Shown piece by piece: positions 5,460-21,123 of a stretch of DNA of 64,000 bases. The translations under genes and the position numbers were made by a program. Source of the stretch: an uncultured Gammaproteobacteria bacterium (GTDB lineage: Bacteria; Patescibacteriota; Patescibacteriia; Magasanikbacterales; UBA922); the NCBI GenBank assembly GCA_964566225.1, contig CAZMHV010000003.1:6658-70657 (forward strand). Direction: 5' to 3'. Below the pieces are notes generated by a model that made no database searches, was not told the origin of the DNA, and saw only the letters and a program-made list of their open reading frames with translations. The stretch's first letter is position 1. The number at the start of each line of letters is the position of its first letter.

Positions 5460-5495
5460 TAGTTTGACGAGATCACCCTAAAATACTATATTATT

Positions 5496-5870: not shown

Positions 5871-5905
5871 TGTTACTTAGAGCATTCCATTAACTTAACA
5901 TCTGT

Positions 5906-6556
5906 ATGCAAGGTAAAGGAAAAGGTAATAAAATGAAACCAAAAAAAGAACGACCTGAGTTTGATCAGCATATTGTTGATTTGGCTCGTGTTACTCGTGT
6001 GACCGAAGGTGGAAAACATTTAAGTTTTCGTGCCTGTGTGGTTATCGGAGACCGCAATGGTCGTGTTGGATTTGGTGTTGAAAAAGGACCAGATGTGCAG
6101 ATTGCTGTGGAAAAAGCAGTGAACCAAGCAAAAAAGAACATTATTCGTGTTCCTCTTGTAAGTGAATCAATCCCACATCGTGTGGAAGCCAAATATAAAG
6201 CAGCCAAAGTAATGCTCAAACCAGCTCCAAAAGGTTCTGGAGTTATTGCTGGAAGTGCGATTCGTGTTATTTTGGAAATGGCTGGTGTACCAAATGCATC
6301 TTCAAAAATGCTTGGAAAAACCAGTAATAAAATTGCCAATGTAAAAGCCGTTTTTCAAGCATTACAATCATTTAATTACCGATCACTCAATGGACGCAAG
6401 CAAAAAGAAAGAGTTGATGCTGATGTAACTGTTCCAGAAGAAAAAGTAGAAGCTTTGAAAGCAAAGACCGGTATTCAAGATGATGCTCCTCAAGCAAAGA
6501 CAGCTGCTAAACCAGCAGCTCGTACTGTGCGAAAGGCAGCTCCCAAAAAAGCCTAA
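5906..6556 (+). CDS. rpsE: 30S ribosomal protein S5 with Ala/Lys-rich C-terminal extension
   Basis: S5 core ('...GDRNGRVGFG...GSGVIAG...') plus an extension of about 50 aa. Followed directly by rplO with no rpmD (L30). Confidence 0.88.
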   Translation: MQGKGKGNKMKPKKERPEFDQHIVDLARVTRVTEGGKHLSFRACVVIGDRNGRVGFGVEKGPDVQIAVEKAVNQAKKNIIRVPLVSESIPHRVEAKYKAAKVMLKPAPKGSGVIAGSAIRVILEMAGVPNASSKMLGKTSNKIANVKAVFQALQSFNYRSLNGRKQKERVDADVTVPEEKVEALKAKTGIQDDAPQAKTAAKPAARTVRKAAPKKA

Positions 6557-6565
6557 TAGATTTTT

Positions 6566-7006
6566 ATGGAATTAACACCTCACACAATTAAAAGTTCAAA
6601 GGGATCAAAACGCAGTAGTAAACGCGTTGGACGTGGTGGCGGTTCAGGTAAAGGAACCACTGCAGCTCGTGGACAAAAAGGTCAACGTGCTCGTTCTGGC
6701 GGTACTCGTGGTATTGCGCGTCGTGCTCTCAAAGCAAATATTCAAAAAGTTCCAAAACTCCGTGGTTTCCGCAGTATGTATGCTAAACCTGAAACGGTTA
6801 CTTTGACTACTCTCAATGCTAAATTTACTGACGGAGATGTAGTAACTCCAACTATTTTGAAGCAAAAGAAATTGATTCAAGGTAACAAAGCAGTAAAAGT
6901 ACTTGCTTCTGGACAGCTCACCAAAAAAATAACTATCAAAGGATGTTTGACTACCAAAAAAGTAGCAGAAATCGTTGAAAAAGTTGGTGGAAAAGTAGTA
7001 TTCTAA
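6566..7006 (+). CDS. rplO: 50S ribosomal protein L15
   Basis: 146 aa, Gly/Arg-rich N-terminus '...GRGGGSGKGTTAARGQKGQ...' typical of L15. Confidence 0.88.
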   Translation: MELTPHTIKSSKGSKRSSKRVGRGGGSGKGTTAARGQKGQRARSGGTRGIARRALKANIQKVPKLRGFRSMYAKPETVTLTTLNAKFTDGDVVTPTILKQKKLIQGNKAVKVLASGQLTKKITIKGCLTTKKVAEIVEKVGGKVVF

Positions 7007-7029
7007 ATATTGTCTTATTCTATAATTGC

Positions 7030-7104
7030 AATCCGAATCTGTCTCATGGCAGACAGGCCTACACAGTGAGTCTGTCAGGTATGAGAAAGATTCGGATTTT
7101 TTTT
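7030..7104 (+). promoter_or_regulatory. Nested stem-loop with U-tract in the rplO–secY spacer (candidate attenuator/terminator)
   Basis: AATCCGAATCT (7030–7040) pairs with AGATTCGGATT (7088–7098) and is followed by T8. An inner CTGTCT/AGACAG hairpin lies at 7039–7056. Confidence 0.5.
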
Positions 7105-7133
7105 CGGAAAATTTACGCAGTAACTTTAACACT

Positions 7134-8405
7134 ATGTTAGAAAAATTTGAAAGAATTTGGAAAATAAAAGATATTCGTAATAGTATTTTATTTGTCCTTG
7201 GAATGCTTTTTATTTTTCGTGTGGCAGCACATATTCCTGTCCCAGGAATTAATGTACAAAATTTACAGAAGTTTTTGGAAGGTAACCAAGTACTTGGACT
7301 CCTCAATATTTTTTCTGGTGGCACATTACAAAATTTTTCTGTTGTGATGCTTGGCGTTGCTCCATATATCACCGCTTCAATTATTTTTCAATTGTTGCAA
7401 ATGGTAATTCCTTCATTTGAAGAAATGGCCAAAGAAGGTGAGTCAGGAAAACAAAAAATTCAAATGTACACTCGTATTGCTGCAGTGCCACTCGCATTTT
7501 TGCAAGCTTTTGGTTTGATTCAGTTGCTCCGTACCTCTCAACTCAATATCTTACCAGATTTGAATACCTTTGGTTTTGTGACTATTATGCTCACTGCTGC
7601 TGCGGGAACGATTTTCCTTATGTGGATTGGTGAACTTATTACTGAAAGAAAACTCGGAAACGGTTTGTCACTGCTTATTTTTGCTGGTATCGTTGCTGCA
7701 TTGCCAAGTGCTGTTCAGCAAATTATTTTGAACTATAACCCATCAGATTTGTTGACTTACGTTTTCTTTGCACTTATTATCATTGTAACAGTCGTTGGTG
7801 TTGTCGTTATTAGTGAAGGACAACGAAATATTCCTGTACAGTATGCCAAACAAGCTATTGGATCACGAAGATTTTCTGGTGCAAATTCAACATTGCCACT
7901 TCGTATCAATATGGCTGGCGTGATTCCAATTATCTTTGCGGTTTCGCTTATTTTATTCCCATCCATGATTGCTCAGTTTTTTGTGAACAAACCTGGAATG
8001 CTTGGACAGATTGCACAAGAAACCATTCGTTTGTTTCAAAATCAGTGGTTTTATGGAATTTTGTATTTTCTCTTGGTATTTGGCTTTACCTACTTTTATA
8101 CTGCTGTGGTATTTCAACCAGAAAAAATTGCAGAGAACTTACAAAAGCAGGGTGGCTATATTCCAGGTATTCGTCCTGGAAAAGAAACTGAACAGTATTT
8201 GAGTAAAATCATGGGTCGTCTTATTTTGACTGGTGCGCTTTTCTTGGGTCTTATTGCTATATTACCTTTGGTCTTACAAGGAATTACTGGAACTCAGTCA
8301 CTTGCTGTGGGTGGTACGAGTCTTCTCATTTTGGTGAGTGTCGCTATTGAAACCACCAAACAAATTGATGCACAACTTACTGTGCATGAATACGATCGAG
8401 CCTAA
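7134..8405 (+). CDS. secY: Preprotein translocase subunit SecY
   Basis: About 10 TM segments and SecY-like sequence from 'MLEKFERIWKIKDIRN...'. The ORF-track start at 7026 lies inside the upstream hairpin, so 7134 is preferred. Confidence 0.88.
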   Translation: MLEKFERIWKIKDIRNSILFVLGMLFIFRVAAHIPVPGINVQNLQKFLEGNQVLGLLNIFSGGTLQNFSVVMLGVAPYITASIIFQLLQMVIPSFEEMAKEGESGKQKIQMYTRIAAVPLAFLQAFGLIQLLRTSQLNILPDLNTFGFVTIMLTAAAGTIFLMWIGELITERKLGNGLSLLIFAGIVAALPSAVQQIILNYNPSDLLTYVFFALIIIVTVVGVVVISEGQRNIPVQYAKQAIGSRRFSGANSTLPLRINMAGVIPIIFAVSLILFPSMIAQFFVNKPGMLGQIAQETIRLFQNQWFYGILYFLLVFGFTYFYTAVVFQPEKIAENLQKQGGYIPGIRPGKETEQYLSKIMGRLILTGALFLGLIAILPLVLQGITGTQSLAVGGTSLLILVSVAIETTKQIDAQLTVHEYDRA

Positions 8406-8432
8406 GATTTTTGGTTCAAAAATATTTTCAAG

Positions 8433-8466
8433 ATCCCGCCTCGTTTTTTACGGGCGGGATTTCTTG
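8433..8466 (+). terminator. Rho-independent terminator after secY
   Basis: ATCCCGCC(tcgtttttta)CGGGCGGGAT hairpin followed by TTCTT. Confidence 0.6.
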
Positions 8467-8529
8467 TCAGAGAGGATGTTTTTTGTTATAGTGATTACGT
8501 TGAAAGCTTCTTTGAATTAATTTTTTTGT

Positions 8530-8829
8530 ATGTCTACATTTAACGATGTCATGAGTTCACTCTTTGGTGGAAACAGTTATTCTACTACTCCTCGAACTTT
8601 GTCAGAAAGTGAAATTCGAACGCTTATCTCTGAAACTAGAATCTCTTCACTTTCTCAAAAAGAAGTGGCTATTGTAGAAGATGCTTTGGTCCATGGAAGA
8701 AATGGAAGTATGATTTCACTTTCCAAAATTGATCAAATACTGAGGCATTTGGAACAAACAAGACAAATTACTCGTTATGACCGTGATAGTGTAATGAAAG
8801 TTTTTAAGAGTCACATGGGAACTCGATAA
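8530..8829 (+). CDS. Hypothetical protein (99 aa) inserted between secY and adk
   Basis: ORF with no recognisable motifs. Its position interrupts the usual secY-adk adjacency. Confidence 0.45.
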   Translation: MSTFNDVMSSLFGGNSYSTTPRTLSESEIRTLISETRISSLSQKEVAIVEDALVHGRNGSMISLSKIDQILRHLEQTRQITRYDRDSVMKVFKSHMGTR

Positions 8830-8839
8830 TTTTATTTTT

Positions 8840-9508
8840 ATGAATGAACAAATTATTATTCTTCTTGGAGTACCCGGCAGTGGTAAAGGAACCCAAGCCA
8901 AGCGACTCCATGACCAGTATGGTTTTGCACACATTTCAAGTGGTGACTTGCTCCGCGCACTGGATGCGAACCCAGATGCTGACCCAGCGCTCAAAGCAAA
9001 GTTAGCAGACATGAAAGCGGGAAAACTCGTTGCCAGTGACTTAATTTATCAACTGGTGTTTGCTGAAATTGAAAAGCAAGTTGCTGATGGAAAAAATATT
9101 GTGCTTGATGGTGCCGTACGAAGTGTTGATCAGGCCCAGGCTTTTGATGCATTTTTTGCACAAAAGAATTTGACCGATCGTGTGCGTGTAGTGGAATTTA
9201 CCATGCCTGATGATTTGAGTTTGCTTCGTCTCACCAAGCGAAAAAACTGCAGTCAGTGTGGACACATTATTTCTTATAGTCCAGAGAATGATGCCAAGAC
9301 TATTTGTGAAAAGTGTGGCGGAGCTTTGGTCGTTCGATCTGATGATACTCCAGAAATTGCCATGAAGCGCATTGCAGAGCAGGGGAATGCTGTAGTGGCG
9401 CCTGTGCGTGCCTACTATCAGCAAGCTGGAAATTATATTGCTGTAGATGCCGTGCAAGATATTGATGGCATGGAACGGGATTTGGTAAGAGAACTTCACC
9501 TTGCTTAA
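8840..9508 (+). CDS. adk: Adenylate kinase (long form with zinc-binding lid)
   Basis: P-loop 'GVPGSGKGTQ' and lid 'CSQCGHIISYS...CEKCGG' with four Cys. Confidence 0.9.
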   Translation: MNEQIIILLGVPGSGKGTQAKRLHDQYGFAHISSGDLLRALDANPDADPALKAKLADMKAGKLVASDLIYQLVFAEIEKQVADGKNIVLDGAVRSVDQAQAFDAFFAQKNLTDRVRVVEFTMPDDLSLLRLTKRKNCSQCGHIISYSPENDAKTICEKCGGALVVRSDDTPEIAMKRIAEQGNAVVAPVRAYYQQAGNYIAVDAVQDIDGMERDLVRELHLA

Positions 9509-9527
9509 TTTGGTATAAACCACAAAA

Positions 9528-9558
9528 GTTAGCTTAAAATAGCTAATTTTTGTTTTTT
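9528..9558 (+). terminator. Rho-independent terminator after adk
   Basis: TTAGCT(taaaat)AGCTAA hairpin followed by TTTTTGTTTTTT. Confidence 0.55.
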
Positions 9559-9598
9559 CACTCTTGATTTTCCTGTATATTTTGATAGACTTACCTAT

Positions 9599-10393
9599 AT
9601 GTCCTACATAAAAACTCCCCAAGAACTCAAACAAATTATTGAAGGCGGCCAAAAAATGGGCGAAATTTTGGAACAGCTCGAACCCATGATTCAAGCAGGG
9701 GTGAGTGGTTTTGAAATTGATGCCGAAGCTGAGCGTCTTATTCGTGCCTCTGGCGGCGTGCCTGCGTTCAAAGGATACAAATCTCGCAAAAGTGATCCAC
9801 CATTTCCTGGAACGCTCTGTTTTTGTCTCAACGACGAGGTAGTACATGGAATTCCTACCAAACAAAAAATTATTCAAAAGGGTGACCTGGTAACTTTGGA
9901 TATTGGCATGCAGTGGCCTGCAAAAGGTGGTTACTTTACTGATACCGCACTGACCGTGCCTGTGGGCAAAGTTCCTGTGCGTGTGCGCAATTTGCTTGCG
10001 GTCACCAGTGAAGCACTTGAAATTGGGATTGAACAAGTAAAAATTGGTAACACGATTGCAGATATTGGACGTGCCATTGAAAAGTATGTACACAAACAAG
10101 GCAAATATGGCATTGTAGAGGACTTAGTGGGTCATGGCGTAGGTCATGCTGTGCACGAAGATCCTCGTGTACCAAATTATGAAGACAGAGATTTAGAAGA
10201 ATGGGAGATTGTGCCTGGTGTGGTGATTGCTATTGAACCAATGATTACTCTCGGTACCCACAAAGTTGTGATGGCCGCAGATGGCTGGAGTATTTTGACT
10301 GCAGACCAGAGTTTAAGTGCACACTTTGAACATACGATTGCTGTGACAGAAGAGGGACCTGTGGTGGTGACCAGGAGACCGAGTGAACGATAA
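9599..10393 (+). CDS. map: Methionine aminopeptidase type I
   Basis: 264 aa with metal-binding residues in MAP-I context ('...DIGMQW...', 'HGVGHAVHEDP', 'EPMITLG'). Confidence 0.88.
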   Translation: MSYIKTPQELKQIIEGGQKMGEILEQLEPMIQAGVSGFEIDAEAERLIRASGGVPAFKGYKSRKSDPPFPGTLCFCLNDEVVHGIPTKQKIIQKGDLVTLDIGMQWPAKGGYFTDTALTVPVGKVPVRVRNLLAVTSEALEIGIEQVKIGNTIADIGRAIEKYVHKQGKYGIVEDLVGHGVGHAVHEDPRVPNYEDRDLEEWEIVPGVVIAIEPMITLGTHKVVMAADGWSILTADQSLSAHFEHTIAVTEEGPVVVTRRPSER

Positions 10394-11033
10394 TATGAAT
10401 TCATTTGAAAGTGTAGAAAAGATCGTTGAAAGAATTCAACGGGGGGAAATTGTTATTGTGCTTGACGAACAAAGAGAACACGAAGCTGACCTTATTGTTT
10501 CTGCTGAGCTGGTTACTCCAGAGCATATTAATTTTATGATTACGTGGGGCAGGGGACTGGTGTGTGTGCCCATGGAAGCAAATCGTTTAAAAGAACTTCA
10601 GTTAGGACCGATCGAACGTTCGTCAGATCCTTTTGGGACAAAATGGTGCACTTCAGTTGATGCACGTGAAGGAATTACCACAGGGATTTCTGCATTTGAT
10701 CGTGCTCGAACGATTCGTCTGCTTGCTTGTGATGGAATCTCTGAAGATTTTACAACTCCTGGCCATATATTTCCGCTCCAAGGAGCATTGGGAGGAATGA
10801 GTGAACGTCAGGGTCATACAGAAAGTTCTTTGGCCCTTATGAAAGCAGCAGGACTTGCTCCTGCCGCAGTTATTTGTGAGATTCTTCGAGATGATGGTCA
10901 TGTGGCTCAGTTATCTGACTTGATGGATTTTGCAAAAAAACATGGTTTAGGGATGTGTACGATTGAACAAATTATTTCGTTTACAAAGGATATAAATTAT
11001 ACAGAGTATGAATATTCCATACCTTCTCGTTGA
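10383..11033 (+). CDS. ribB: 3,4-dihydroxy-2-butanone 4-phosphate synthase-like protein
   Basis: 'VLDEQREHEADLIVSAE' matches the DHBP synthase active-site region (RExEGDL-like). 216 aa. An alternative start at 10395 avoids the overlap with map. Confidence 0.7.
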   Translation: MNDNMNSFESVEKIVERIQRGEIVIVLDEQREHEADLIVSAELVTPEHINFMITWGRGLVCVPMEANRLKELQLGPIERSSDPFGTKWCTSVDAREGITTGISAFDRARTIRLLACDGISEDFTTPGHIFPLQGALGGMSERQGHTESSLALMKAAGLAPAAVICEILRDDGHVAQLSDLMDFAKKHGLGMCTIEQIISFTKDINYTEYEYSIPSR

Positions 11034-11043
11034 CTTTAATGAA

Positions 11044-11310
11044 ATGGTTGATTCTGATACCGTATTGCTTTCATCGGATGATAAAAAAATTGATTTTGAA
11101 GGGAATGAGATTCTTTTGGAGGAAGGGCAAAAAGTTTTTGTATATATGCCAGACATTGATGAACAAGGGAATTTTGATACTTTAGCGGCTCAAGGAACAG
11201 TCGTCAAAAATTCTTACGATGTTGTTTGGACCCAAAAGGCAAAGTGGGTGTGTAAAATAGATAACAATGGTATACGACATAAATCAGAAATTTTAGACAA
11301 TGGAGTATAA
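11044..11310 (+). CDS. Hypothetical protein
   Basis: ORF 11008–11310 trimmed to the internal ATG to avoid a 26-nt overlap with ribB. Acidic, no motifs. Confidence 0.35.
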   Translation: MVDSDTVLLSSDDKKIDFEGNEILLEEGQKVFVYMPDIDEQGNFDTLAAQGTVVKNSYDVVWTQKAKWVCKIDNNGIRHKSEILDNGV

Positions 11311-11319
11311 AATTTTTTT

Positions 11320-11703
11320 ATGAATATTCTCGGCATTGACTTTGGACAAAAACGCATTGGCTTGGCTTGGGTTCAACAAGGCCTTGATGTTATTTTGCCA
11401 TACGGTTTGATACAAAATTCTCCAGAACAAATAGTCCCTGATGAACTGGTAACACTCATCAAAGAAGAACGAATCAATAAAGTAGTTATTGGTGTGCCAC
11501 TTGGAATGGAAGGCGAAGAGAATACGAACACCAAACGTGTTCGTGCCTTTGGCGAAGAACTCGGCAAGCAAATTGATTTGCCCATTGAATTTATTGACGA
11601 ACGATTTACCACGCATGAAGCGAGTCGAATGGGTGGCACAGCAAGCATTGATGAAAAGTCTGCCATGCTGATTTTGGAAACATACATGGAACTCCACAAA
11701 TAG
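11320..11703 (+). CDS. ruvX: Putative pre-16S rRNA nuclease / Holliday-junction resolvase-like YqgF (RuvX)
   Basis: 'ILGIDFGQKRIGLA' N-terminus, RNase H-like YqgF signature. 127 aa. Confidence 0.82.
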   Translation: MNILGIDFGQKRIGLAWVQQGLDVILPYGLIQNSPEQIVPDELVTLIKEERINKVVIGVPLGMEGEENTNTKRVRAFGEELGKQIDLPIEFIDERFTTHEASRMGGTASIDEKSAMLILETYMELHK

Positions 11704-11725
11704 AAATGTTTGGTTGTGAAAATAT

Positions 11726-12481
11726 ATGCAAGCTATTGTTTTGTCGCGGCAGGACTTCAAAGAATACGATCAAATTATTTCTTTGTACACGCGTGAAGAG
11801 GGAAGACGAGATTTGCTCGCGCGTGGCATCAAAAAAATTGTGAGTAAAAATGCGGCTCAACTCGAGCCCTGTTCTGTGGTAGAAGTTGGTGTGGCACATG
11901 GCAAGGATTTGGATATTGTGACCAATGTGCAAATAGAAAAATATTTTCCACAGATTCGACGGAGTTACTACAAATCACTCCTGGGACTTTGGGCGACTGA
12001 CCTCACCAAAGTTTTTTTTACTTCACCCGAGCGTGACGAACGAGTATTTTTACTGCTTTCGTCGTGGCTTGCTCACGTTGACGCTGCTCCACAAATTTCG
12101 CCATATATTCTCGATGCTCTTGTATTACGCAGCTTAAGTTTTTTGGGGCTGACTCCGGTGATTGATCATTGTGCCGAGTGTGAACGGGTGAGAGCAGGGG
12201 AGACATTTTTCTTTTCACCGTCACGGGGTGGAATTGTGTGTTCGTCTTGCCGAAACCAAAAGACGCTTCCGAGCGAAGTGTGGTACCGTGTGAGTAAAGA
12301 CTTTTTGCAAGGGATCTCTGAAATTCTTTTTTCTCCTTGGGAGCAACTTTCGGCCTTTTCGCGTGACAAAAAGGCCTATGTGCAGCTCCACCGCCTTACT
12401 TTGTCATTTGTTCAGTATCACCATGAGGCCAATCTCAAAGACTGGTGGAAAATAGCTAAATTAAGCAAATTTTTTATATAA
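11726..12481 (+). CDS. recO: DNA repair protein RecO
   Basis: OB-fold N-terminus followed by Cys4 zinc motif 'CAEC...CSSC'. 251 aa. Confidence 0.75.
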   Translation: MQAIVLSRQDFKEYDQIISLYTREEGRRDLLARGIKKIVSKNAAQLEPCSVVEVGVAHGKDLDIVTNVQIEKYFPQIRRSYYKSLLGLWATDLTKVFFTSPERDERVFLLLSSWLAHVDAAPQISPYILDALVLRSLSFLGLTPVIDHCAECERVRAGETFFFSPSRGGIVCSSCRNQKTLPSEVWYRVSKDFLQGISEILFSPWEQLSAFSRDKKAYVQLHRLTLSFVQYHHEANLKDWWKIAKLSKFFI

Positions 12482-12808: not shown

Positions 12809-12879
12809 GGGCGCGTCGTATAATGGTAGTACTGCGGTCTCCAAAACCGTATGCGTGGGTTCGATTCCCCCCGCGCCTG
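12809..12879 (+). tRNA. tRNA-Trp (anticodon CCA)
   Basis: Manual fold: 7-bp acceptor stem (one G-U), D-arm, anticodon stem GCGGT/ACCGT with loop cuCCAaa, T-loop GGTTCGATTCC, discriminator G. CCA is not encoded. Confidence 0.75.
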
Positions 12880-12890
12880 CTAGTGAAAAT

Positions 12891-12916
12891 AGAGCTTCAT
12901 TGAGCTCTGTTTTTTG
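12891..12916 (+). terminator. Rho-independent terminator after tRNA-Trp
   Basis: AGAGCT(tcattg)AGCTCT followed by GTTTTTT. Confidence 0.55.
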
Positions 12917-13018
12917 TATACCCGCAAGTGGAATCGAACTATTCTTTGGAAAAATATAGATTTTTTTATGAGATACTGTTAAAATAAAAACAATTTATAA
13001 TATGTGTGAATTAATTTT

Positions 13019-15004
13019 ATGAAGACAAAAAGTCGTAAACAGCAATATAAGCTTTACCTTGCTAGTGGCATTACTCTCTGGAAAACATATTTTCATAAAA
13101 ATTACTCACCTTTTTTTAATAAAAAAGTGGGGCTTTTTGAGCCTGGGACTTTAGATAATCCGAATGATCACCGTTTTATTCCTATTGGAATTGCTTGTTA
13201 CGATCTCAACGAGATTAACCATGCAGACGCACTTCTTGTGTATATGAAGCATTACCAATCTCTTGATGGATCTCCAACTGGTACAGATAGTACTTGGGAA
13301 TGTGGATATGCAATTGGAAAAGGGAAACCCGTAGTTATGCTGATTGAAGATAAGGACCATATTGATTACTACGCTTCACAGTGGATGGTAAGTTTTAGTA
13401 TTAATGCTATTCTTACCGTTCATAAAGAAGTGGCAGAGATTGTAAAAAAACATCCAAAATTTGTTCATACCACTGTTCTTTTGGCAGAAAACAAAAATCA
13501 ATTTGAGACAAAAGTAACTGAATATCTAGATAATTATTATAGATCAATATATTCTCGTTCAGGGGTCATTAATTACGCAGTAGATAAAAGAGCTCGAGAA
13601 CTTTTTAGTAGAAAGAGTTTATCGGATATAATTTTTACAGAGAGTGCACCTCATAAAAAAGTAGTTGAAAAATTGAATAATTTGGAGGATTTAAAATTTA
13701 CGTCAGACGAAGATGCTCTGGTAGTCTGTGCAATAGAAAGATATATTTCGGAGTTGTTTAAAAGATCTCTTTCTGAAGAGGGGATTGATTCAGCAATTTC
13801 AGCGGTGATAAAAGTTTGGAACAAAAAGGAAAATTATATCTTGGATTGTTTAGAATACTCTTTAATACCACCTTTCGCAGAGGTAAAAAATAGACATTCA
13901 GGTATAAAAAAAATAAGACCAGAATTATTTTTTGAGTTGTATGACTTAGTAAACCATCATGTAGTTTCGGAAGCTCGTTCGATCAAGTCAGAATCTTTCC
14001 CTTATGATATCGGCGCAGTAGTGGAACTGTATAATTGGATGAATACCTATGCTTTAGATGACGTGTTCGATAATTCTGAAATGAGACAGCGTTCAAAAAC
14101 TGTCTGGAAAGCATTTTCCAGAAGAGACGCAATATATACTGGTTTATTAGGCCATTTATTACCACTGAAGTACTTCTTTATTATTGCCACTGAAAATAAA
14201 CAGATAGGTGAAGGTCTGGCAAAGGTAATGAATGATTATAATTATATAATGTACCAAGGACAGGTTTTTGATTTACAACTCACGTTTAATTCAGAAAAAA
14301 AGAAAAAGCTTCTCCAAAAGAAGAATTTGGAAGAAATGCTTCGAATATACTTACAAAGAATTTATGGGATTTGTGGAGGCTTTTTTGAAGCGATTGGCGA
14401 ATTGTCTGCGAAAGCAGGGGATAAAGAAGAACAAATTATGAACGCTGCGGAAATTGATGTCGTTGCTCCGATAATTGGTATGTATTATGGGATTATTCAG
14501 ATGATACGAAATGACCTTGGAGATTATATTATTGTTGAAGAAGTTTCTGGAATGAGTAAAGGTATGAAAGGGGTATCTCATTGCGATATTACTGAGGGGA
14601 AAGTTGATATTACCTATTTGATAGCGATGTACTCATCCGTTTTGGATAAAAAAGAGAAAAAGTTTTTATATGAGTCTTTGTTTAAAAAATTGAGTCAAAA
14701 ACAGAAGTTAAAGATTAATGAGCTACTTTGGAAATCAGGAGCTATAGATCTCACCGTTGAATTGATTCATAATATCATTAAACATGTTAATACTACACTA
14801 CTGACGAAGTATCACGAAACCCCCACACGCACAAAGTGGATGTTCAGTTTAATGGATATTACAAAGGAAGTGTTGATCCCATTCAAGGATCAAGCCTCAA
14901 AATTTGGTTGGATGAAGTATGAATATGATAAAGAACTTCTTGAAGATGTGACAAAGAAAGTTTTAAGCTTAGAAAATAAAACAAAGGGACAGAGGTTGAA
15001 ATAA
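13019..15004 (+). CDS. Fusion protein: N-terminal nucleoside 2-deoxyribosyltransferase-like domain, C-terminal polyprenyl (isoprenyl diphosphate) synthase-like domain
   Basis: N-terminus '...DSTWECGYAIGKGKPVVML' resembles the NDT/flavodoxin-fold 'DSGTxFExGYAxAxGKPV' motif. C-terminus has FARM-like 'ALDDVFDNSEMRQR', then 'GICGGFFEAIGELSAKAGDKEEQI...IQMIRNDLGDY...KGMKGVSHCDITEGKVDITYLIAMY', collinear with trans-prenyltransferase SARM regions. The second Asp-rich motif is degenerate (NDLGD). Confidence 0.5.
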   Translation: MKTKSRKQQYKLYLASGITLWKTYFHKNYSPFFNKKVGLFEPGTLDNPNDHRFIPIGIACYDLNEINHADALLVYMKHYQSLDGSPTGTDSTWECGYAIGKGKPVVMLIEDKDHIDYYASQWMVSFSINAILTVHKEVAEIVKKHPKFVHTTVLLAENKNQFETKVTEYLDNYYRSIYSRSGVINYAVDKRARELFSRKSLSDIIFTESAPHKKVVEKLNNLEDLKFTSDEDALVVCAIERYISELFKRSLSEEGIDSAISAVIKVWNKKENYILDCLEYSLIPPFAEVKNRHSGIKKIRPELFFELYDLVNHHVVSEARSIKSESFPYDIGAVVELYNWMNTYALDDVFDNSEMRQRSKTVWKAFSRRDAIYTGLLGHLLPLKYFFIIATENKQIGEGLAKVMNDYNYIMYQGQVFDLQLTFNSEKKKKLLQKKNLEEMLRIYLQRIYGICGGFFEAIGELSAKAGDKEEQIMNAAEIDVVAPIIGMYYGIIQMIRNDLGDYIIVEEVSGMSKGMKGVSHCDITEGKVDITYLIAMYSSVLDKKEKKFLYESLFKKLSQKQKLKINELLWKSGAIDLTVELIHNIIKHVNTTLLTKYHETPTRTKWMFSLMDITKEVLIPFKDQASKFGWMKYEYDKELLEDVTKKVLSLENKTKGQRLK

Positions 15005-15055
15005 ATAGTGAGTAGGCTAGGGGACTAGGAATGAATAAAGTTTGGAATATAAACA

Positions 15056-15151
15056 TATCCCTTTTCTCCTTTCAAAATAGTTCCAACTTCCTCCACAATG
15101 GCCTGCAGATAAAAACATAGCTCGATCATGCTATGTTTTTTTGTACAAATG
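15056..15151 (+). repeat. Conserved intergenic element, copy A (ends in terminator hairpin 15111–15143)
   Basis: Shares the core '...TTCCAAC..CC.CACAATGGCCTGCA.AT.AAAACATAGCT..[hairpin]..TTTTTT.TA(C)AAA' with copies B and C. Confidence 0.7.
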
Positions 15152-15261
15152 AAAAAAATTATCGATAAAAATAGACTTAAATAAGCAATAATCTTTCTGA
15201 ATGATTGAATTATCATTCAAATAGTGTTAAGGTATAAACTCTGTACTTTTAAAAAGAATCT

Positions 15262-16635
15262 ATGATTTCAGTAATAATTCCCATTTTGAACGAAGAAAAA
15301 ACAATACAAAATATTATTCGATCTGTTCAAAAATATAAAGAAGTAACTGAAATTATTGTTGTTGATGATAAATCAATTGATCGGAGTGTGGAGATTGTAA
15401 AGTTATTGGGTGTTAAGATTATTACGAGCACAAAACTTGGGAAAGGAGCATCAATGCGTGATGGAGTTTTATTTGCAAAAAATGATATTATTGTTTTTCT
15501 CGATGGTGATATAAAAAAATATGCTGATGGTTTTTTAAAAAAAATAACGAAGCCAATTTTAAGTGGAAAGTGTGATTTTGTAAAAACGACATTTGATAGA
15601 GAAGCGGGGAGGGTAACGGAGTTAGTAGCGAAGCCTTTGTTAAGTTTATTATTTCCAAAATTGGCAAAATTTTCTCAACCTTTGAGTGGCATAATCGCAG
15701 GGAAAAAGGAATATTTTGAAAAGATTACTTTTGAAGATGATTATGGTGTTGATATTGGAATTTTGATTGATATGCATCAACTTGGAGCGAAAATATGTGA
15801 AGTTAAGATTGGAAAAATTGAGCATAAAATGAAGATGTGGCAAGAACTGAGCTCTATGTCAAAAGATGTTTCGAAGGCAATACTAAAAAGAGCCAATAAT
15901 TCTTCAACATTGGCTTTGAATCAGTTGGAAACAATTAGTATTATTCGTGATCAAATGGGGTTCGCTATCAAGGAATCTTTGAAAAAAATGAAAAAAATGG
16001 TTATTTTTGATATGGATGATACTATATTGAAGGGAAGATTTGTTTATGAATTTGCGACTCGATTTGGTTTTAAAAGGGAGTTGTTAAAAATTGTTCGTCT
16101 TCATAAAGATCCACTTATTCGTACTAAACGTATTGCCAATTTAATGCGTGGATTTGATATAGGTCAAATAATTGAATTTGTCGAAGCTATGCCAATAGTT
16201 TCAGATATTACTGAAACTATTAAAATTTTAAAATCGAGAGGGTATGTTGTTGGAATTATTAGTGATAGTTATGATGTCGTTGCTCAACATATCAAACATA
16301 AGGTAGATGCTGATTTTTCTTTGGCGAACGAGTTAGAATTTTCTAAAAGTGTCACAACTGGTGAAGTAAAAATTCCATCTTTTTTTATTAAAAATAAAGA
16401 CAGTAAGTGTCAACATAGTGTATGCAAAAGTAATGCGTTGCTGAGTGTAAGCAAATCGTATTCAATCGGTATACGGAATATTATTTCTGTGGGTGATGGT
16501 GAAGGAGATATTTGTATGGTAAAATATTCAGGATTAGGAGTCGCATTTTGTTCTAAAAACAAAGACCTAAAAAAAATTGCCCAAGTTGAAATTTTGAAAA
16601 GAGAGTTTTTACCAATGCTTCATATCGCCTTATAA
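15262..16635 (+). CDS. Bifunctional-looking glycosyltransferase (GT2/GT81-like, GpgS/MpgS-like) fused to HAD-superfamily phosphatase
   Basis: N-terminus 'VIIPILNEEKTI...VVDDKSIDRS...FLDGD' has the GT-A fold with DxD. C-terminus 'MVIFDMDDTIL ... SVGDGEGDI' shows HAD motifs I and IV. 457 aa. Confidence 0.6.
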   Translation: MISVIIPILNEEKTIQNIIRSVQKYKEVTEIIVVDDKSIDRSVEIVKLLGVKIITSTKLGKGASMRDGVLFAKNDIIVFLDGDIKKYADGFLKKITKPILSGKCDFVKTTFDREAGRVTELVAKPLLSLLFPKLAKFSQPLSGIIAGKKEYFEKITFEDDYGVDIGILIDMHQLGAKICEVKIGKIEHKMKMWQELSSMSKDVSKAILKRANNSSTLALNQLETISIIRDQMGFAIKESLKKMKKMVIFDMDDTILKGRFVYEFATRFGFKRELLKIVRLHKDPLIRTKRIANLMRGFDIGQIIEFVEAMPIVSDITETIKILKSRGYVVGIISDSYDVVAQHIKHKVDADFSLANELEFSKSVTTGEVKIPSFFIKNKDSKCQHSVCKSNALLSVSKSYSIGIRNIISVGDGEGDICMVKYSGLGVAFCSKNKDLKKIAQVEILKREFLPMLHIAL

Positions 16636-16638
16636 AAT

Positions 16639-17115
16639 ATGACCCAAAATAAAAAAAAGAATCAAGCAAATTTAATCGCTTCACTCCTTCATATTTTTGG
16701 ACTTTGTATTGTTGTCATTTTGGTAAGTATTTCTGTAATTCATAGGTCATCTCTTATCGGGTGGGCATTAATTTTTCTCGGTCTTTTTTGTTTGGCAAGT
16801 TTATCTTTTTTGAAGATCAGTTTGAAATCTCTTCAACCAGATATTATTTTTGGTATTATTGATAATGGTATTTTAGTTGTTACTGCACTTTTTGGAGCTC
16901 ATTTTGCAGGAGTTTCTGGTGCGGTTGTTGGTGGGGTAGTTGGAAACGCTCTCACCGATGGTATCGCAGGAGTGTTTGAGGGCTATTCTGCTGAAAAACT
17001 TCGTTCTTTGGAAATTTCAGAACAACGAACGGTTTTAAAGTCAGCCGTTGGGAAAATGGCTGGGTGTCTTTTGGGAGCAGGTTTTGTTTTAATGGTGGTT
17101 GAATTTTTATTTTAG
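16639..17115 (+). CDS. Hypothetical membrane protein
   Basis: 158 aa with 4 predicted TM segments and Gly-rich helices. Confidence 0.5.
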   Translation: MTQNKKKNQANLIASLLHIFGLCIVVILVSISVIHRSSLIGWALIFLGLFCLASLSFLKISLKSLQPDIIFGIIDNGILVVTALFGAHFAGVSGAVVGGVVGNALTDGIAGVFEGYSAEKLRSLEISEQRTVLKSAVGKMAGCLLGAGFVLMVVEFLF

Positions 17116-17210
17116 ACTTTTGATTTTTTCTGTTATTGGATCTGTTTGATTCTGAGGTATTGTTTTTGATAAACTAAATCTGACACGGTGTCAAATGAAG
17201 GATATAAATG

Positions 17211-17306
17211 TATCCTTTGTTTTCTTGGAAAGTAATTTCAATATCCTTCACGATGGCCTGCACATGAAAACATAGCTTCAATGAGCTGTGTTTTTTTATA
17301 CAAAAT
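17211..17306 (+). repeat. Conserved intergenic element, copy B (terminator hairpin 17267–17297)
   Basis: 'TATCCTTTG...TTTCAATATCCTTCACGATGGCCTGCACATGAAAACATAGCTtcaatgAGCTGTGTTTTTTTATACAAAATGG', alignable to copies A and C. Confidence 0.7.
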
Positions 17307-17392
17307 GGACGAATGTGTTGAAAGTTGGTACACTAATTTAAACTCCAATATTTAGTTTTTAACTATATCTGATTTAGATGTAAAGACAAAAT

Positions 17393-18034
17393 ATGCAGAT
17401 AGCTAATAAAATATCTTCGTGGCAAGAACTTTCAAAACGAGATAAAGTAATTTTTTTGGCGTACTATTTTCTTATTTGTATTTTCCCAATAATTTCTATA
17501 CTTGCCTTTCTTGATTTATCTCCACTTTCAAAATTTTCAGAAGGACTTTCTGGATTTATTGGTGTGGGGTTATTTTTGTTGTTTCCTGTTATTACATTTA
17601 CTTTGCTTCAAGAACGAATACATTTAATACTTCGCTCTCCTCTTCGTTTTTTTTCTCCTTTTTTTATACAGGCAGGCTTTTTGATATTTAATTTTTTCCT
17701 TCATAGAGAAGACGTTATTCAAAGTATTATTATTTCTGTGCTTTCTGAATTTTGTGGTTTATTTTTAATCTTGTCATCTAGTATCATTTTTCTTATTTAC
17801 AAAAAACGGATTGCTCGGGTAGAACGAATTGGTGACAAGTTGGTAAAGTTAGGTTTTGGGTTATTTATTACACTATTTTTATGGATACCTTTGGTGGCTT
17901 TGGGCTATGCTTACTTTATGAATAGCTTGAAGTTCACTCCACTTTTTGCATTCATTGCGATCATACAGTTTTTTACCGGCGTTATCACTGTGGCTCTTTC
18001 ACAAAAAAAATTATTAAAAGATGGCACTATATAA
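17393..18034 (+). CDS. Hypothetical polytopic membrane protein
   Basis: 213 aa with about 6 TM segments and no motifs. Confidence 0.5.
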   Translation: MQIANKISSWQELSKRDKVIFLAYYFLICIFPIISILAFLDLSPLSKFSEGLSGFIGVGLFLLFPVITFTLLQERIHLILRSPLRFFSPFFIQAGFLIFNFFLHREDVIQSIIISVLSEFCGLFLILSSSIIFLIYKKRIARVERIGDKLVKLGFGLFITLFLWIPLVALGYAYFMNSLKFTPLFAFIAIIQFFTGVITVALSQKKLLKDGTI

Positions 18035-18054
18035 ATTAAATTTTTGAATATAGA

Positions 18055-18152
18055 CAATACTTTTTTTCTTCTTGTAGAATAGTTCCAACCTTGCTTACTC
18101 TGGCCTGCACGCTAAAACACTGCTAATATAAGCTGTATTTTTTATACATTGC
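18055..18152 (+). repeat. Conserved intergenic element, copy C (degenerate hairpin followed by T6)
   Basis: '...TAGAATAGTTCCAACCTTGCTTACTCTGGCCTGCACGCTAAAACACTGCTaatataAGCTGTATTTTTTATACATTG'. The hairpin has two mismatches. Confidence 0.65.
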
Positions 18153-18230
18153 CCAGTTTTTGTTTAAGCCTTGAAAGAAAACCCTCTTCTTGATAGTGTT
18201 ATATGTATTATTTCCCTTATTTTTCATTGT

Positions 18231-18695
18231 ATGGCAGATGTATCCAAAAATAAAAATGTACTCATCGCGGTTTTGGTGATTGGTGTTTTGGCTGCTGGAT
18301 CTTTTGGTATATATCGTTCATCAGTATCAAATACTGTGGGTGCTCCTACAAATCCACCCGTTTCACAGCAAGATGTCCCTTCTGCGGTAAGTGCTTCGTA
18401 CAAAGATGGAGACTATACTGCTGTTGGTACCTACACAGCACCAAATGGACAGGAAACAATTGGTGTGAATGTAACATTAAAAAATAACGTAATTACCAAT
18501 GTTGCTGTACAAGCACAATCAACACAACCCCAATCGAAACGATTTCAAGATATGTTTGCCGAGAATGTTCAGGGTGCCGTAGTTGGAAAAAATATCAGTG
18601 AAATTAATCTCAAAAAAGTTTCTGGTTCATCTTTGACACCAAAAGGCTTCAATGATGCCCTCAATAAAATCAAAACACAGGCTGCTCAGGCGTAA
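18231..18695 (+). CDS. FMN-binding domain protein (NqrC/RnfG-like, extracytoplasmic, membrane-anchored)
   Basis: N-terminal TM helix, 'YKDGDYTAVGTYTAPNGQETIGVNVTLKNNVITNV' FMN_bind fold, and a C-terminal 'KKVSGSSLT' candidate flavinylation motif ([DN]xx[ST]G[AS][ST]). ORF-track start is 18171. Confidence 0.6.
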   Translation: MADVSKNKNVLIAVLVIGVLAAGSFGIYRSSVSNTVGAPTNPPVSQQDVPSAVSASYKDGDYTAVGTYTAPNGQETIGVNVTLKNNVITNVAVQAQSTQPQSKRFQDMFAENVQGAVVGKNISEINLKKVSGSSLTPKGFNDALNKIKTQAAQA

Positions 18696-18712
18696 TATCT
18701 TTTTGCACATTT

Positions 18713-19597
18713 TTGAGTATGCACCCTTCGAACTATACATTTGAAGCGATTGGTACTCATTGGCAGATAGATGTGTATGATGTTTTGACACCTGCTCAAG
18801 AAAAAAACTTGTTGACGAGAATACAAGATCGAATTGAATTATTTGATCGCACGTATTCTCGTTTTCGTTTTGATTCTCTTGTTACCAAAATGTCACAAGA
18901 AGCAGGGGAGTATGAGTTGCCTCCTGATGCAGTACCACTGTTTGACCTGTATAAAAAGTTGTATGATTTGACCCAAGGTTTTTTTACCCCGCTCATTGGT
19001 CAAACATTGGTAGAGGCTGGGTATGATGCAGAGTATTCTTTGCAGTCGAAAACACTTCATCATCCCAAGCGATGGGAAGACGTGATGGAATTCCGTGCAC
19101 CGTATTTGTTGGTCAAACAGCCAGTGCTGCTGGATATTGGAGCGGCTGGCAAAGGGTACCTCATTGATATTGTGGGGCGACTGCTTGAAGAAAATGGTAT
19201 ACACAATTATTGTGTTGATGCGGGTGGAGATATTTTGCACCGTAGTACAAGTGGTGAGTCACTTCAAATTGGACTGGAACACCCACAAAATTTGGAGCAG
19301 GTGATTGGGGTGGTCAATGTCTGGAACCAAAGTTTGTGTGGTTCTGCGGGCAATCGTCGAGCGTGGGGAGAGTTTCATCACATCATCAATCCCTTTACAC
19401 TTTCTTCACCACGGAGTATTCTAGCGGTGTGGGTAATGGCAGACTCAACTTTACTTGCTGACGGACTTTCCACGTGTTTGTTTTTTGTTCCTGCTGAGAC
19501 ATTGCAAACAAAATTCGAATTTGAATATTTAATCGTACGTGACGACTATTCAGTTGAAAAATCTTCTGGTTTTGATGCTGAACTTTTTTTTAGATAA
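18713..19597 (+). CDS. apbE: FAD:protein FMN transferase (ApbE family)
   Basis: 'LDIGAAGKGYLID', 'HHIINP' and overall ApbE-like sequence. 294 aa. Confidence 0.75.
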   Translation: MSMHPSNYTFEAIGTHWQIDVYDVLTPAQEKNLLTRIQDRIELFDRTYSRFRFDSLVTKMSQEAGEYELPPDAVPLFDLYKKLYDLTQGFFTPLIGQTLVEAGYDAEYSLQSKTLHHPKRWEDVMEFRAPYLLVKQPVLLDIGAAGKGYLIDIVGRLLEENGIHNYCVDAGGDILHRSTSGESLQIGLEHPQNLEQVIGVVNVWNQSLCGSAGNRRAWGEFHHIINPFTLSSPRSILAVWVMADSTLLADGLSTCLFFVPAETLQTKFEFEYLIVRDDYSVEKSSGFDAELFFR

Positions 19598-19602
19598 ATT
19601 GT

Positions 19603-21123
19603 ATGCTCAAGTTTATTGATAAATTTCTCAACTCCATTACCATGTACAAATTGGTTTTGTCGGGACTCTCGGGGCTCGCTGTTTTGAGCATTGTGCTTAG
19701 TTTTGCTGGAGTATTGCCATTTACTGGTTTGCAATTACTCGGTTCACTTTTGGTGTTAGTGGGTACGTGTTATCTTACGAATGAAATTACTGGCCGCTTG
19801 CTCAAGGCTCCTCGCAATAGTGAATCATATTTCATTACTGCCCTTATTTTGTTTTTTGTTGTTGCACCATTTATTGGGAGTAAAGAATTTTTTATGGTCG
19901 TGGGAATCGCTGTGTTGGCCATGGCTTCCAAGTACATTTTTGCCATTCACAAAAAACATTTGTTTAACCCTGCAGCCATTTCCGTACTGATTGCCGGGCT
20001 TCTCGGCAGTGGACTTTCTATTTGGTGGGTGGGCAGCGCAGTGCTTTCTCCGTTTACCGCTCTTTTGGGACTTTTGATTGTACGAAAAATTCGTCGTTTT
20101 TCTTTGTTTGTTTCATTTGTGGTGACCAGTTTGATAGTGATGATTTTGTTTGGTATCAAAAATGGCCTTGGCATTTCGAGTGTCTTGGTTGAAGCTTTTA
20201 TTTCTTGGCCGCTTGTGTTTTTTGCTTCTGTTATGCTCACCGAACCACTCACCACACCTCCCACGCGTCAGTGGCAAATAGTGTATGGAGCATTGGTCGG
20301 GGCCTTGTTTAGTTCATCGTTTCACTTTGGACCAATCTCAGCGACTCCAGAATTTGCTTTGGTCGTCGGAAATATTTTTTCATATATTGTAAGTTCCAAA
20401 CAAAAGCTGTTGCTCACCCTCAAAGAAAAGAAAATGATTGTGCCAGGTATTTACGAATTTATTTTTACTCCCAATCAAAAATTGGCATTTATTCCGGGGC
20501 AATATTTGGAATGGACCTTGCCACATGCCAAGGCAGACAGCCGAGGAAACAGACGGTACTTTACCATTGCTTCTTCACCAACTGAAGACGAAATAAAATT
20601 GGGAGTACGTATCAATGAAAAAGAATCGAGTAGTTTCAAAAAAGCACTTCTGCAAATGCAAAATGGTGATGTGATGGTGGCGTCACAACTTGCTGGAGAT
20701 TTTACGTTGCCTCAGGATTCCAAAAAGAAACTGGTGTTTATTGCCGGTGGCATTGGCATTACACCGTTTCGCAGTATGGTTCAGTATTTACTCGATAAAA
20801 ACGAAAAACGTGATGTAACGTTATTTTATTCTACACTCGATCCCAATACGTGTGCATACAATCCAGTCTTTGAAGAAGCCGTACAAAAAATTGGTCTCAA
20901 AAATATTTGTGTGATCTCGGATGCGAGTAGAATTCCTTCGGGTTGGGCAGGGGAGAGTGGATATATTACTTCTGAAATGATTCAAAAGCATATTCCAAAT
21001 TTTGCTGATCATGTGTTTTATCTGTCTGGGCCCAATGCCATGGTGGAAAATTACAAAAAGTTGCTCCTGGGTATGGGGGTTGCCAAAAAGAATATTGAAA
21101 CAGATTATTTCCCTGGGTTTTAA
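19603..21123 (+). CDS. Fusion: NqrB/RnfD-like membrane domain plus ferredoxin-NADP reductase-like FAD/NAD(P)-binding oxidoreductase domain
   Basis: N-terminal half has about 6 TM segments with the 'FNPAAISVL' motif characteristic of NqrB/RnfD. C-terminal half has 'RRYFTIASSP' (FAD RxYS), 'GGIGITPF' and 'FYLSGP' (NAD-binding). Confidence 0.6.
   Translation: MLKFIDKFLNSITMYKLVLSGLSGLAVLSIVLSFAGVLPFTGLQLLGSLLVLVGTCYLTNEITGRLLKAPRNSESYFITALILFFVVAPFIGSKEFFMVVGIAVLAMASKYIFAIHKKHLFNPAAISVLIAGLLGSGLSIWWVGSAVLSPFTALLGLLIVRKIRRFSLFVSFVVTSLIVMILFGIKNGLGISSVLVEAFISWPLVFFASVMLTEPLTTPPTRQWQIVYGALVGALFSSSFHFGPISATPEFALVVGNIFSYIVSSKQKLLLTLKEKKMIVPGIYEFIFTPNQKLAFIPGQYLEWTLPHAKADSRGNRRYFTIASSPTEDEIKLGVRINEKESSSFKKALLQMQNGDVMVASQLAGDFTLPQDSKKKLVFIAGGIGITPFRSMVQYLLDKNEKRDVTLFYSTLDPNTCAYNPVFEEAVQKIGLKNICVISDASRIPSGWAGESGYITSEMIQKHIPNFADHVFYLSGPNAMVENYKKLLLGMGVAKKNIETDYFPGF

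Follow-up and report, generated by a model that had tools for sequence, protein, structure and literature searches.

We analyzed a 64,000-nucleotide stretch of DNA from an assembly deposited as an uncultured Gammaproteobacteria bacterium and placed by GTDB in the Patescibacteriota (order Magasanikbacterales, UBA922; assembly GCA_964566225.1, contig CAZMHV010000003.1, positions 6,658 to 70,657 of the forward strand). The whole stretch is called the window here, and it is itself bacterial, encoding RecO and RuvX. The gene in question occupies positions 13019..15004 on the + strand (ATG start, 661 amino acids plus stop, GC fraction of 0.337). An earlier note, made from the sequence alone, had described it as an unusual fusion of a nucleoside deoxyribosyltransferase (NDT)-like domain to a trans-isoprenyl diphosphate synthase (trans-IDS)-like domain. 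The open reading frame (ORF) and the peptides quoted in that note were found exactly where it had placed them: GTDSTWECGYAIGKGKPVV at aa 88 to 106 (nt 13280-13336), ALDDVFDNSEMRQR at aa 345 to 358 (nt 14051-14092), and NDLGD at aa 498 to 502 (nt 14510-14524). Structure prediction and profile comparison of the two halves, which the note had proposed as checks, returned an NDT-superfamily fold for the N-terminal domain and a trans-IDS fold for the C-terminal domain. We confirmed that the product is one soluble polypeptide comprising an NDT-superfamily domain, a family-specific helical insert, and a trans-IDS fold with a C-terminal extension; transmembrane prediction on all 661 aa found no hydrophobic segment of membrane-spanning character.

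An AlphaFold2 (AF2) model of the whole chain, built from the family alignment, had a pLDDT of 86.2 and a pTM of 0.88. It consists of a six-stranded Rossmann-like α/β domain (aa ~10 to 175) and an all-helical body (aa 177 to 660). The N-terminal 288 aa modeled alone gave a pLDDT of 83.6 and a pTM of 0.59, and the comparison of these pTM values suggests that the two domains are predicted to sit in a fixed arrangement.

The NDT-superfamily domain spans aa 9 to 176 (13043..13546) and is built of six β-α units. The assignment made in the earlier note stood, but not the proposed length of ~140 aa: the domain is longer and is followed by a helical insert of ~115 aa. In Pfam searches, PF05014 (Nuc_deoxyrib_tr) matched aa 57 to 115 with 25.2 bits (E value of 1.9e-5), just below the gathering score of 28.8. 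The assignment is nonetheless secure, because many members of the fusion family carry precomputed PF05014 matches, stand-alone homologues of the domain score 31.6 to 44.4 bits in the Pfam NDT profiles (several passing the PF05014 or PF15891 gathering scores), and the fold agrees. The best PDB matches to the 288-aa model, identified with Foldseek at probabilities of 0.98 to 1.0 and modest E values, were PTD (1s2d/1s2l), the CMP N-glycosidase BcmB (4jen), and a Desulfotalea NDT (7o62), with DNPH1 a few ranks lower; the Rossmann-like fold is that of the NDT superfamily.

Conservation was read from 28 aligned members of the fusion family and from all 62 of its sequences. W21, F25, Y29, H51, D90, W93, E94, G96, Y97, K103, and P104 are invariant or near-invariant, and the motif D..WE.G(Y/C/F) is present in all 57 full-length fusion proteins. 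The active-site motif GTDSTWECGYAIGKGKPVV (13280..13336) contains Glu94 (nt 13298-13300), which like Asp90 is invariant and which aligns with the Glu of FE(V/L)G in trypanosomatid NDTs (2a0k, 6qai) and with that of vEIGWA in the CMP hydrolase MilB. In the NDT family this Glu is the catalytic nucleophile or base, and Glu94 is a candidate catalytic nucleophile. Like the PF05014/PF15891 proteins with which it was compared (PTD 1s2d, Trypanosoma brucei NDT 2a0k, DNPH1/Rcl, and MilB/BcmB), the domain has an upstream Asp and a Glu within (F/W/Y)ExG(Y/C/W)A that is followed by GKP(V/I). Unlike them, it scores below the Pfam threshold and carries a private signature (W21..F25..Y29, LFEPG, H51, GTDSxWE, and WMV) common only to the fusions and to stand-alone proteins associated with UbiA-family genes. 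At the sequence level, it also lacks the GSIRGG phosphate loop of DNPH1. The all-helical insert that follows (aa 177 to 290; 13547..13888) matched no Pfam family; its first part (YLDxYYRSIYxRxGxxNxxVD) is conserved in the fusion family, and the remainder is variable.

The trans-IDS fold occupies aa ~291 to 600 (13889..14818), as the earlier note had recognized. PF00348 (polyprenyl_synt) matched aa 294 to 563 with 48.6 bits, above its gathering score of 27, while NCBIfam returned weak, subthreshold matches to various IDS equivalogs. The full model matched 168 PDB chains at an E value of ≤1e-3 in Foldseek, and the best 50 of these 168 were all trans-prenyltransferases (GGPPS, OPPS, HexPPS, SPS, and others), with target-normalized TM scores of ~0.7 to 0.78 and 14 to 20% identity. 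Alignment of the C-terminal domain to canonical IDS with hhalign gave a probability of 97.7% over 294 columns. Beyond the canonical fold, a helical C-terminal extension of ~60 aa (ETPTRxKW onward, aa ~600 to 661; 14819..15001) is visible in both the conservation pattern and the AF2 model.

The register of the active-site motifs was taken from two alignments, a HMMER alignment to Pyrococcus horikoshii GGPPS (1wy0) and the hhalign comparison. Both pair KKxRP with GGKRxRP, the first Asp-rich motifs with each other, GQxxD with GQxxD, and N498 with the first Asp of the second Asp-rich motif, and both place QM at the position of the canonical FQ. The sequence KKIRP (13907..13921) is thereby the counterpart of the motif that binds the homoallylic (IPP) diphosphate, and its basic residues K298 and R300 are invariant. 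The stretch YNWMNTYAL-DDVFD (14030..14071) joins an invariant polar/aromatic segment to the first Asp-rich motif (D347, D348, and D351), which is intact as the earlier note had stated: YNWxNTY and DDxFDxSxxR, the latter including a downstream Arg (DDVFDNSEMR here), are each present in 62 of 62 members. GQxxD is likewise conserved in the family. The segment RIYGICG (14357..14377; R(I/V)(Y/N)GICG in 58 of 62 members) contains no KT dipeptide. HMMER pairs GKTGALFE with GICGGFFE here, replacing K-T with I451-C452, a tentative mapping in a region that hhalign aligns with low confidence. The variant second motif, QMIRNDLGD (14498..14524), has N498 in place of the first Asp. Downstream, SKGMKGVSHCDITEGK (14555..14602) corresponds to the GKxxGxDxxxGK lid/diphosphate motif with a 4-residue insertion, as judged from conservation, the AF2 model, and the HMMER alignment; this counterpart begins in a flexible loop (aa 512 to 517, low pLDDT), and its SHxDxx(E/D)GK core is present in 62 of 62 members.

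The earlier note was right that NDLGD replaces DDxxD, and wrong to call the motif degenerate. QM(I/V)RND(L/M)x(D/N) occurs in 62 of 62 members and DDxxD in none, and because ND is found in all 62 relatives, the motif is a fixed variant rather than the result of decay. NDxxD is a working Mg/prenyl-diphosphate-binding motif in UbiA and NphB prenyltransferases (PMC7839719, PMC3227686). More broadly, several residues that in canonical enzymes contact the condensing IPP and the carbocation have been exchanged for other invariant ones (FQ to QM, the first Asp of the second motif to N, RRG to RQx, and tentatively KT to IC). K298, R300, and R356, which supply the positive charge at the homoallylic diphosphate site, are kept. 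Together with YNWxNTY, this pattern is consistent with a phosphorylated acceptor other than IPP. The IDS-like half also appears to retain the set that binds and ionizes an allylic diphosphate, namely, DDxFD, NDxxD, and the lid Lys and Asp. Reading NDLGDxxxxE as the NSE/DTE motif of a class I terpene cyclase was rejected: position 5 is Asp, the Glu is out of register and unconserved, and the best 50 structural neighbors are elongating IDS rather than cyclases.

Compared with P. horikoshii GGPPS (1wy0), Escherichia coli OPPS (3wjk), and yeast GGPPS (2dh4), the C-terminal domain thus shares the all-helical fold, a GGKRxRP-like motif, the first DDxxD with its downstream Arg, GQxxD, and the GK...D...GK lid. 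It differs in being only 14 to 20% identical and in its substituted motifs (NDxxD, QM, RQx, and tentatively IC), and the fusion adds YNWxNTY, the helical insert, the C-terminal extension, and the NDT-like domain.

A search of 5.8 billion clustered proteins recovered 62 relatives at 42 to 100% identity (62 clusters at 90% identity), so the same fusion does occur in other genomes. Splitting of the ORF by a frameshift in relatives, which the earlier note had named as grounds for doubt, was looked for and is not the case: 57 of the 62 relatives are single ORFs of >600 aa, the gene is one uninterrupted ORF in 18 genomic loci (given L numbers here where they must be told apart), and in no relative were the two halves found as adjacent separate genes. 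A frameshift or chimera is ruled out by the full-length relatives. The family is very small. When the N-terminal profile was run with HMMER against 1.84 billion representatives at 50% identity, 29 proteins matched at an E value of ≤1e-3, all of them either fusions (3 of 29) or stand-alone homologues of the N-terminal domain. Some relatives are named [quoted passage not shown] by JGI and others "polyprenyl synthetase family protein" or "uncharacterized," and many carry precomputed matches to both PF05014 and PF00348. Both domains belong to known superfamilies; what appears to be new is the architecture, the private N-domain subfamily, and the pairing with prenyltransferases, no description of which was found in the literature searched. 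The combination is in this sense uncharacterized, as had been supposed, and the database names are generic.

Labels of the metagenome-assembled genomes that carry the relatives name lineages of the Patescibacteria, namely, Paceibacterota, Magasanikiibacteriota, Buchanan-, Vogel-, Doudna-, and Kuenenbacteria, and Kazan. Two fusion-bearing contigs are truly archaeal: L013 encodes GatD, and L018 encodes Cdc48/VAT and ribosomal protein L7Ae. Their fusion proteins fall in separate subclades, with 47% and 59% identity, respectively, to the window protein, which implies that the gene has been transferred between candidate phyla radiation (CPR) bacteria and DPANN-type archaea. No relatives were found on IMG/VR viral contigs, PADLOC defense profiles gave 0 families at an E value of ≤1 against the fusion protein, and a PHROG search returned a weak NDT match only.

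Several members and distant homologues are unusual in other ways. The annotation of the relative at L006 7794-9968 (P0016, 724 aa) gives it an HTH_17/excisionase extension (PF12728) at the N terminus, probably an overextended start codon or upstream read-through. Loci L008 and L009 (CAIOLF010000046.1, 22036-39997 and 69078-87039 reversed) are the same 18-kb array, fusion gene included, inverted on one 109-kb contig, and probably reflect a palindromic assembly artifact or a large inverted duplication. Among more distant NDT-like proteins, P0079 (456 aa) has a C-terminal region of ~300 aa outside known families, and in P0078 (330 aa) the NDT-like domain is duplicated in tandem.

The stand-alone homologues of the N-terminal domain are 163 to 193 aa long and 35 to 50% identical to it, and they score 150 to 216 bits over the whole N-domain profile (HMMER). 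A UbiA-family (PF01040) gene abuts the stand-alone gene in L019, L021, L022-25, and L027/L060. When metagenomes were scanned with the N-domain profile, L030, L031, L044/45, L052, and L053-57 joined this list, each with one or two UbiA genes directly adjacent; all other strong matches in that scan were fusions. UbiA genes thus adjoin every stand-alone homologue with readable flanks, across at least 9 independent loci; homologues on a 1.4-kb contig (L043) or at contig ends (L020 and L026) were left out. These clusters occur in bacteria (SmpB is encoded in L044 and bacterial-type ribosomal proteins in L031) and on the archaeal-type contig L022, where the order is TrmB, NDT-like (8001-8528), UbiA (8500-9369), IDS, IDS, TrmB. 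The best NCBIfam matches of the partner UbiA proteins were chlorophyll synthase, DGGGP synthase, and a generic "prenyltransferase," and because all were far below cutoff, the partner subfamily is taken as uncharacterized. Fusion to an IDS fold in one setting and consistent adjacency to UbiA in another are two independent ties between the NDT-like subfamily and prenyl-transfer enzymes. The association with UbiA gives independent support to the suggestion in the earlier note of an altered, possibly nucleotide-linked chemistry.

The stand-alone clusters have further contents. The two tandem IDS paralogues of L022 (9508-11754, − strand) are 60% identical to each other, 370 aa long, and canonical, each with a charged N-terminal extension of ~60 aa and a DDxLG second motif. 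Some clusters also hold Lnt-like (LNT_N+CN_hydrolase), AMP-binding-like, and O- or ICMT-type methyltransferase genes, and one holds an aromatic amino acid lyase gene. In L030, L031, L052, and L053 a set recurs in which the UbiA paralogues (one or two) are accompanied by genes for an Lnt-like N-acyltransferase, an AMP-binding-like enzyme, and a methyltransferase of the caffeoyl-CoA-OMT or ICMT type; the set looks like an uncharacterized membrane-lipid or prenyl-aromatic pathway. The L031 cluster (1620-11939), which includes the Lnt-like, AMP-binding-like, and lyase genes, lies between the genes for ribosomal proteins L5 and S8/L6 and appears to be an ~8.6-kb insertion in a ribosomal protein operon.

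Catalytic-type residues are strictly conserved in both halves of the fusion across 42 to 100% identity, and the protein is therefore probably an enzyme with two active sites rather than a scaffold. The reading that we tentatively prefer, and to which we give a little under an even chance, is that it is a bifunctional soluble enzyme coupling N-glycosidic-bond chemistry on a nucleoside or nucleotide to Mg-dependent prenyl transfer onto an acceptor other than IPP. In such an enzyme, Glu94 of the NDT-type domain would act as a covalent nucleophile, and the base of a (deoxy)nucleoside or nucleotide would be cleaved off or exchanged. In the IDS-fold domain, DDVFD and NDLGD would bind an allylic prenyl diphosphate together with Mg2+; the diphosphate would be ionized, and its prenyl group would pass not to IPP but to another phosphorylated or polar acceptor. 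The best candidate for this acceptor would be the nucleobase or nucleoside handled by the N-terminal domain, with a lipophilic prenylated base or nucleoside as the product. In other lineages, a separate N-domain protein may partner a membrane UbiA enzyme, which would stand in for the IDS-like half of the fusion. Activity of both domains, the kind of acceptor, the sequence of steps, and the product are all predicted from conserved residues and gene context.

Several observations weigh against this proposal. GQxxD and the KKxRP of the IPP site are both still present and are compatible with ordinary chain elongation, and the KT-to-IC exchange depends on the alignment used. Beside the fusion genes themselves (18 loci plus the window), neither UbiA nor any other informative gene recurs. 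The IDS genes of L022, considered as specific relatives of the fusion C-terminal domain, were ruled out as such, being canonical IDS. Finally, the Lnt-like, AMP-binding-like, and methyltransferase genes of some stand-alone clusters might instead indicate a pathway of the lipid or lipoprotein type, not nucleobase prenylation.

Characterized systems offer partial parallels for coupled nucleotide and prenyl chemistry. The proposed reaction would be a nonhomologous analogue of the IPT and LOG cytokinin pathway, or of terpene-nucleoside synthesis. The logic resembles that of IPT plus LOG and of TvAPT, in which an adenine nucleotide is prenylated and N-glycosidic cleavage releases the prenylated base; IPT and TvAPT, however, have P-loop-type IPT folds and LOG belongs to PF03641, none of them homologous to the domains of the fusion. 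For TvAPT, prenylation of nucleotides with C10 to C20 chains is enzymatically feasible, and a polyprenyl synthase is encoded nearby (bioRxiv 10.64898/2026.04.03.716432). In Mycobacterium tuberculosis, Rv3377c and Rv3378c yield 1-tuberculosinyladenosine, a terpenyl-nucleoside conjugate (PMC9585517). This is the product class proposed for the fusion, although neither Rv protein has an NDT domain or homology to it. Rv3378c has a cis-prenyltransferase-type fold.

Two further families bear on the prenyl-transfer half. The moenomycin enzyme MoeN5 has a trans-IDS fold, and the acceptor that it prenylates is not IPP (PMC7839719). It differs from the fusion in its acceptor, has no detectable specific sequence relationship to it, and lacks an NDT domain. 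UbiA-family enzymes (NDxxDxxxD/DxxxD) resemble the C-terminal domain in the NDxxD-type motif and carry out the Mg-dependent ionization of a prenyl diphosphate that is predicted for it (PMC7839719, PMC3227686). Unlike them, the C-terminal domain is soluble and belongs to PF00348; Pfam found no PF01040 match in the fusion protein, which has no transmembrane segment, and only the NDxxD-type motif is analogous. Within the trans-IDS fold, plant chrysanthemyl diphosphate synthase is probably active with NDxxD, in line with an alignment note in a preprint (10.1101/169417).

The alternative that survives best, which we consider unlikely, is that the protein is an ordinary elongating trans-prenyl diphosphate synthase (making FPP, GGPP, or longer products, or performing irregular coupling) with the NDT-like domain attached as an independent salvage enzyme or as a nucleotide-sensing or oligomerization module. 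Intact KKxRP, first Asp-rich, and GQxxD motifs, the PF00348 score above gathering, and the elongating IDS that make up the best 50 of 168 structural neighbors all fit such an enzyme, as does the probable activity of chrysanthemyl diphosphate synthase with NDxxD, and CPR organisms depend on nucleoside salvage. It sits poorly with the small size of the family, which forms 3 clusters at a 50% identity cutoff (62 at 90%) and is far too rare to be the housekeeping IDS of CPR bacteria, and with the exchange of several canonical condensation residues for different invariant ones. The recurrence of the stand-alone N-domain subfamily beside UbiA in at least 9 loci would also be hard to explain if the NDT domain were unrelated to prenyl chemistry.

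A second alternative differs in what is transferred. In NDT enzymes, a covalent glycosyl-enzyme is resolved by an incoming nucleophile, and the protein could be a ribosyl- or deoxyribosyl-lipid synthase in which a glycosyl-Glu94 intermediate, formed from a nucleoside or nucleotide, gives up its sugar (phosphate) to a prenyl species, such as a polyprenyl phosphate, that the IDS-like domain (or UbiA in other lineages) makes or holds; we think this improbable. Such a synthase would yield either a carrier of the polyprenyl-phospho-(deoxy)ribose type or a pentose phosphate bearing a prenyl group, an outcome like that of the DPPR synthase route. DPPR synthase is a member of the UbiA superfamily (PMC7839719). 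The partner UbiA proteins score best, if far below cutoff, against the O-prenylating chlorophyll synthase and DGGGP synthase, and several loci hold two tandem UbiA paralogues, which also favors sugar transfer to lipid. Counting the other way, no phosphatase or epimerase is conserved nearby, either in the fusion loci or in the stand-alone/UbiA clusters. No NDT-family enzyme is known to use a phosphate or lipid acceptor, and IDS products are diphosphates rather than monophosphates.

The noncatalytic scaffold offered in the earlier note, that is, a pseudoenzyme whose prenyl-synthase half is dead through a degenerate second motif, is very improbable. The loss of the first Asp of that motif and the apparent absence of canonical KT and FQ are what such a protein might show, but the replacement residues and the remaining metal- and diphosphate-binding residues are invariant at 42 to 100% identity, and elsewhere NDxxD serves as a binding motif for Mg and prenyl diphosphate, as described above for UbiA and NphB. 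Slimmest of all is the chance of a single-gene antiphage or conflict effector that depletes nucleotides through its NDT-like domain: patchy distribution, variable neighborhoods, low GC beside a tRNA gene, cross-domain spread, and the use of NDT/SLOG/TIR-type folds in defense systems (PMC11204291) are set against the absence of PADLOC matches, of IMG/VR relatives, and of recurrent defense-island neighbors (18 loci), and an invariant prenyl-synthase active site and the UbiA association would go unexplained.

The genes around the fusion gene do not travel with it. An all-versus-all comparison of flanking ORFs (18 loci plus the window) found no recurrent neighbor, and the fusion gene behaves as a stand-alone accessory unit. 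The earlier note had drawn attention to a glycosyltransferase-phosphatase fusion and membrane proteins directly downstream. This link did not hold up, and an operon with these genes was rejected: none recurs in the 18 loci, and the adjacent GT2(GpgS-like)-HAD(SerB-like) gene adjoins the fusion gene in no other locus and is a variable cassette. The DNA of the L001 relative is 95% identical to the window over 13505-15141, and similarity ends at ~15141-15154. Synteny with L001 therefore stops within a terminator-like repeat of ~100 nt directly 3′ of the gene (15047..15149, + strand), which recurs at 17202-17304 and 18037-18145 and also at L001 1532-1639. The copy next to the gene thus forms the boundary of the unit. 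The intergenic repeat consists of a hairpin and a T-run (TGCAGATAAAAACATAGC...GCTATGTTTTTTTGTACA), and its copies flank the GT2-HAD+TM158 block and the TM213 gene in cassette-like fashion.

The fusion gene and the cassettes that follow are AT-rich (GC fraction of 0.31 to 0.36, versus 0.42 to 0.44 for recO and apbE). The low-GC block (~12900-18150) begins just after tRNA-Trp (12809-12880), part of whose 3′ end is repeated in inverted orientation at 12923-12939, and may be an acquired island. Within it, the gene at 15262-16635 (+) encodes a GT2 domain like that of glucosyl-3-phosphoglycerate synthase (172 bits to NF010496, below cutoff) fused to a HAD-IB/SerB-like phosphatase, possibly combining in a single protein the synthase and the phosphatase for a solute of the glycosyl-glycerate type. 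Farther downstream, 18171-21123 (+) encodes an FMN_bind protein, an ApbE flavin transferase, and a membrane protein with RnfD/NqrB-like and FNR-like FAD/NAD-binding domains, which suggests a covalently flavinylated membrane redox module. These genes resemble a flavin-based electron-transfer locus that in Listeria also includes an IDS and a UbiA gene. A link between them and the fusion gene was rejected, since they are not conserved in the other loci.

The metabolism of CPR bacteria and DPANN archaea is minimal: they rely on hosts for nucleotides and lipids, and their genomes contain many conserved genes with no assigned function. The fusion enzyme and the NDT-like/UbiA gene pair link nucleoside to isoprenoid chemistry in a way unlike any characterized pathway. 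It is possible, though less likely than not, that these bacteria and archaea share through cross-domain transfer a new pathway in which an NDT-type N-glycosidase or transferase cooperates with a prenyl-transfer module, either the fused IDS-like domain or separate UbiA enzymes, and in which the products are prenylated nucleobases, prenylated nucleosides, or prenyl lipids based on pentose. The fusion protein is soluble, monocistronic, and confidently predicted, and it is amenable to in vitro work. If the proposal is correct, the IDS fold would have gained a new type of reaction, on a nucleotide-derived acceptor other than IPP and with enzymes nonhomologous to IPT and LOG. A prenylated base, nucleoside, or pentose lipid would be a new metabolite class, serving ultrasmall episymbionts as a signal, membrane anchor, or cofactor, and it might bear on how these organisms interact with or anchor to the membranes of their hosts.

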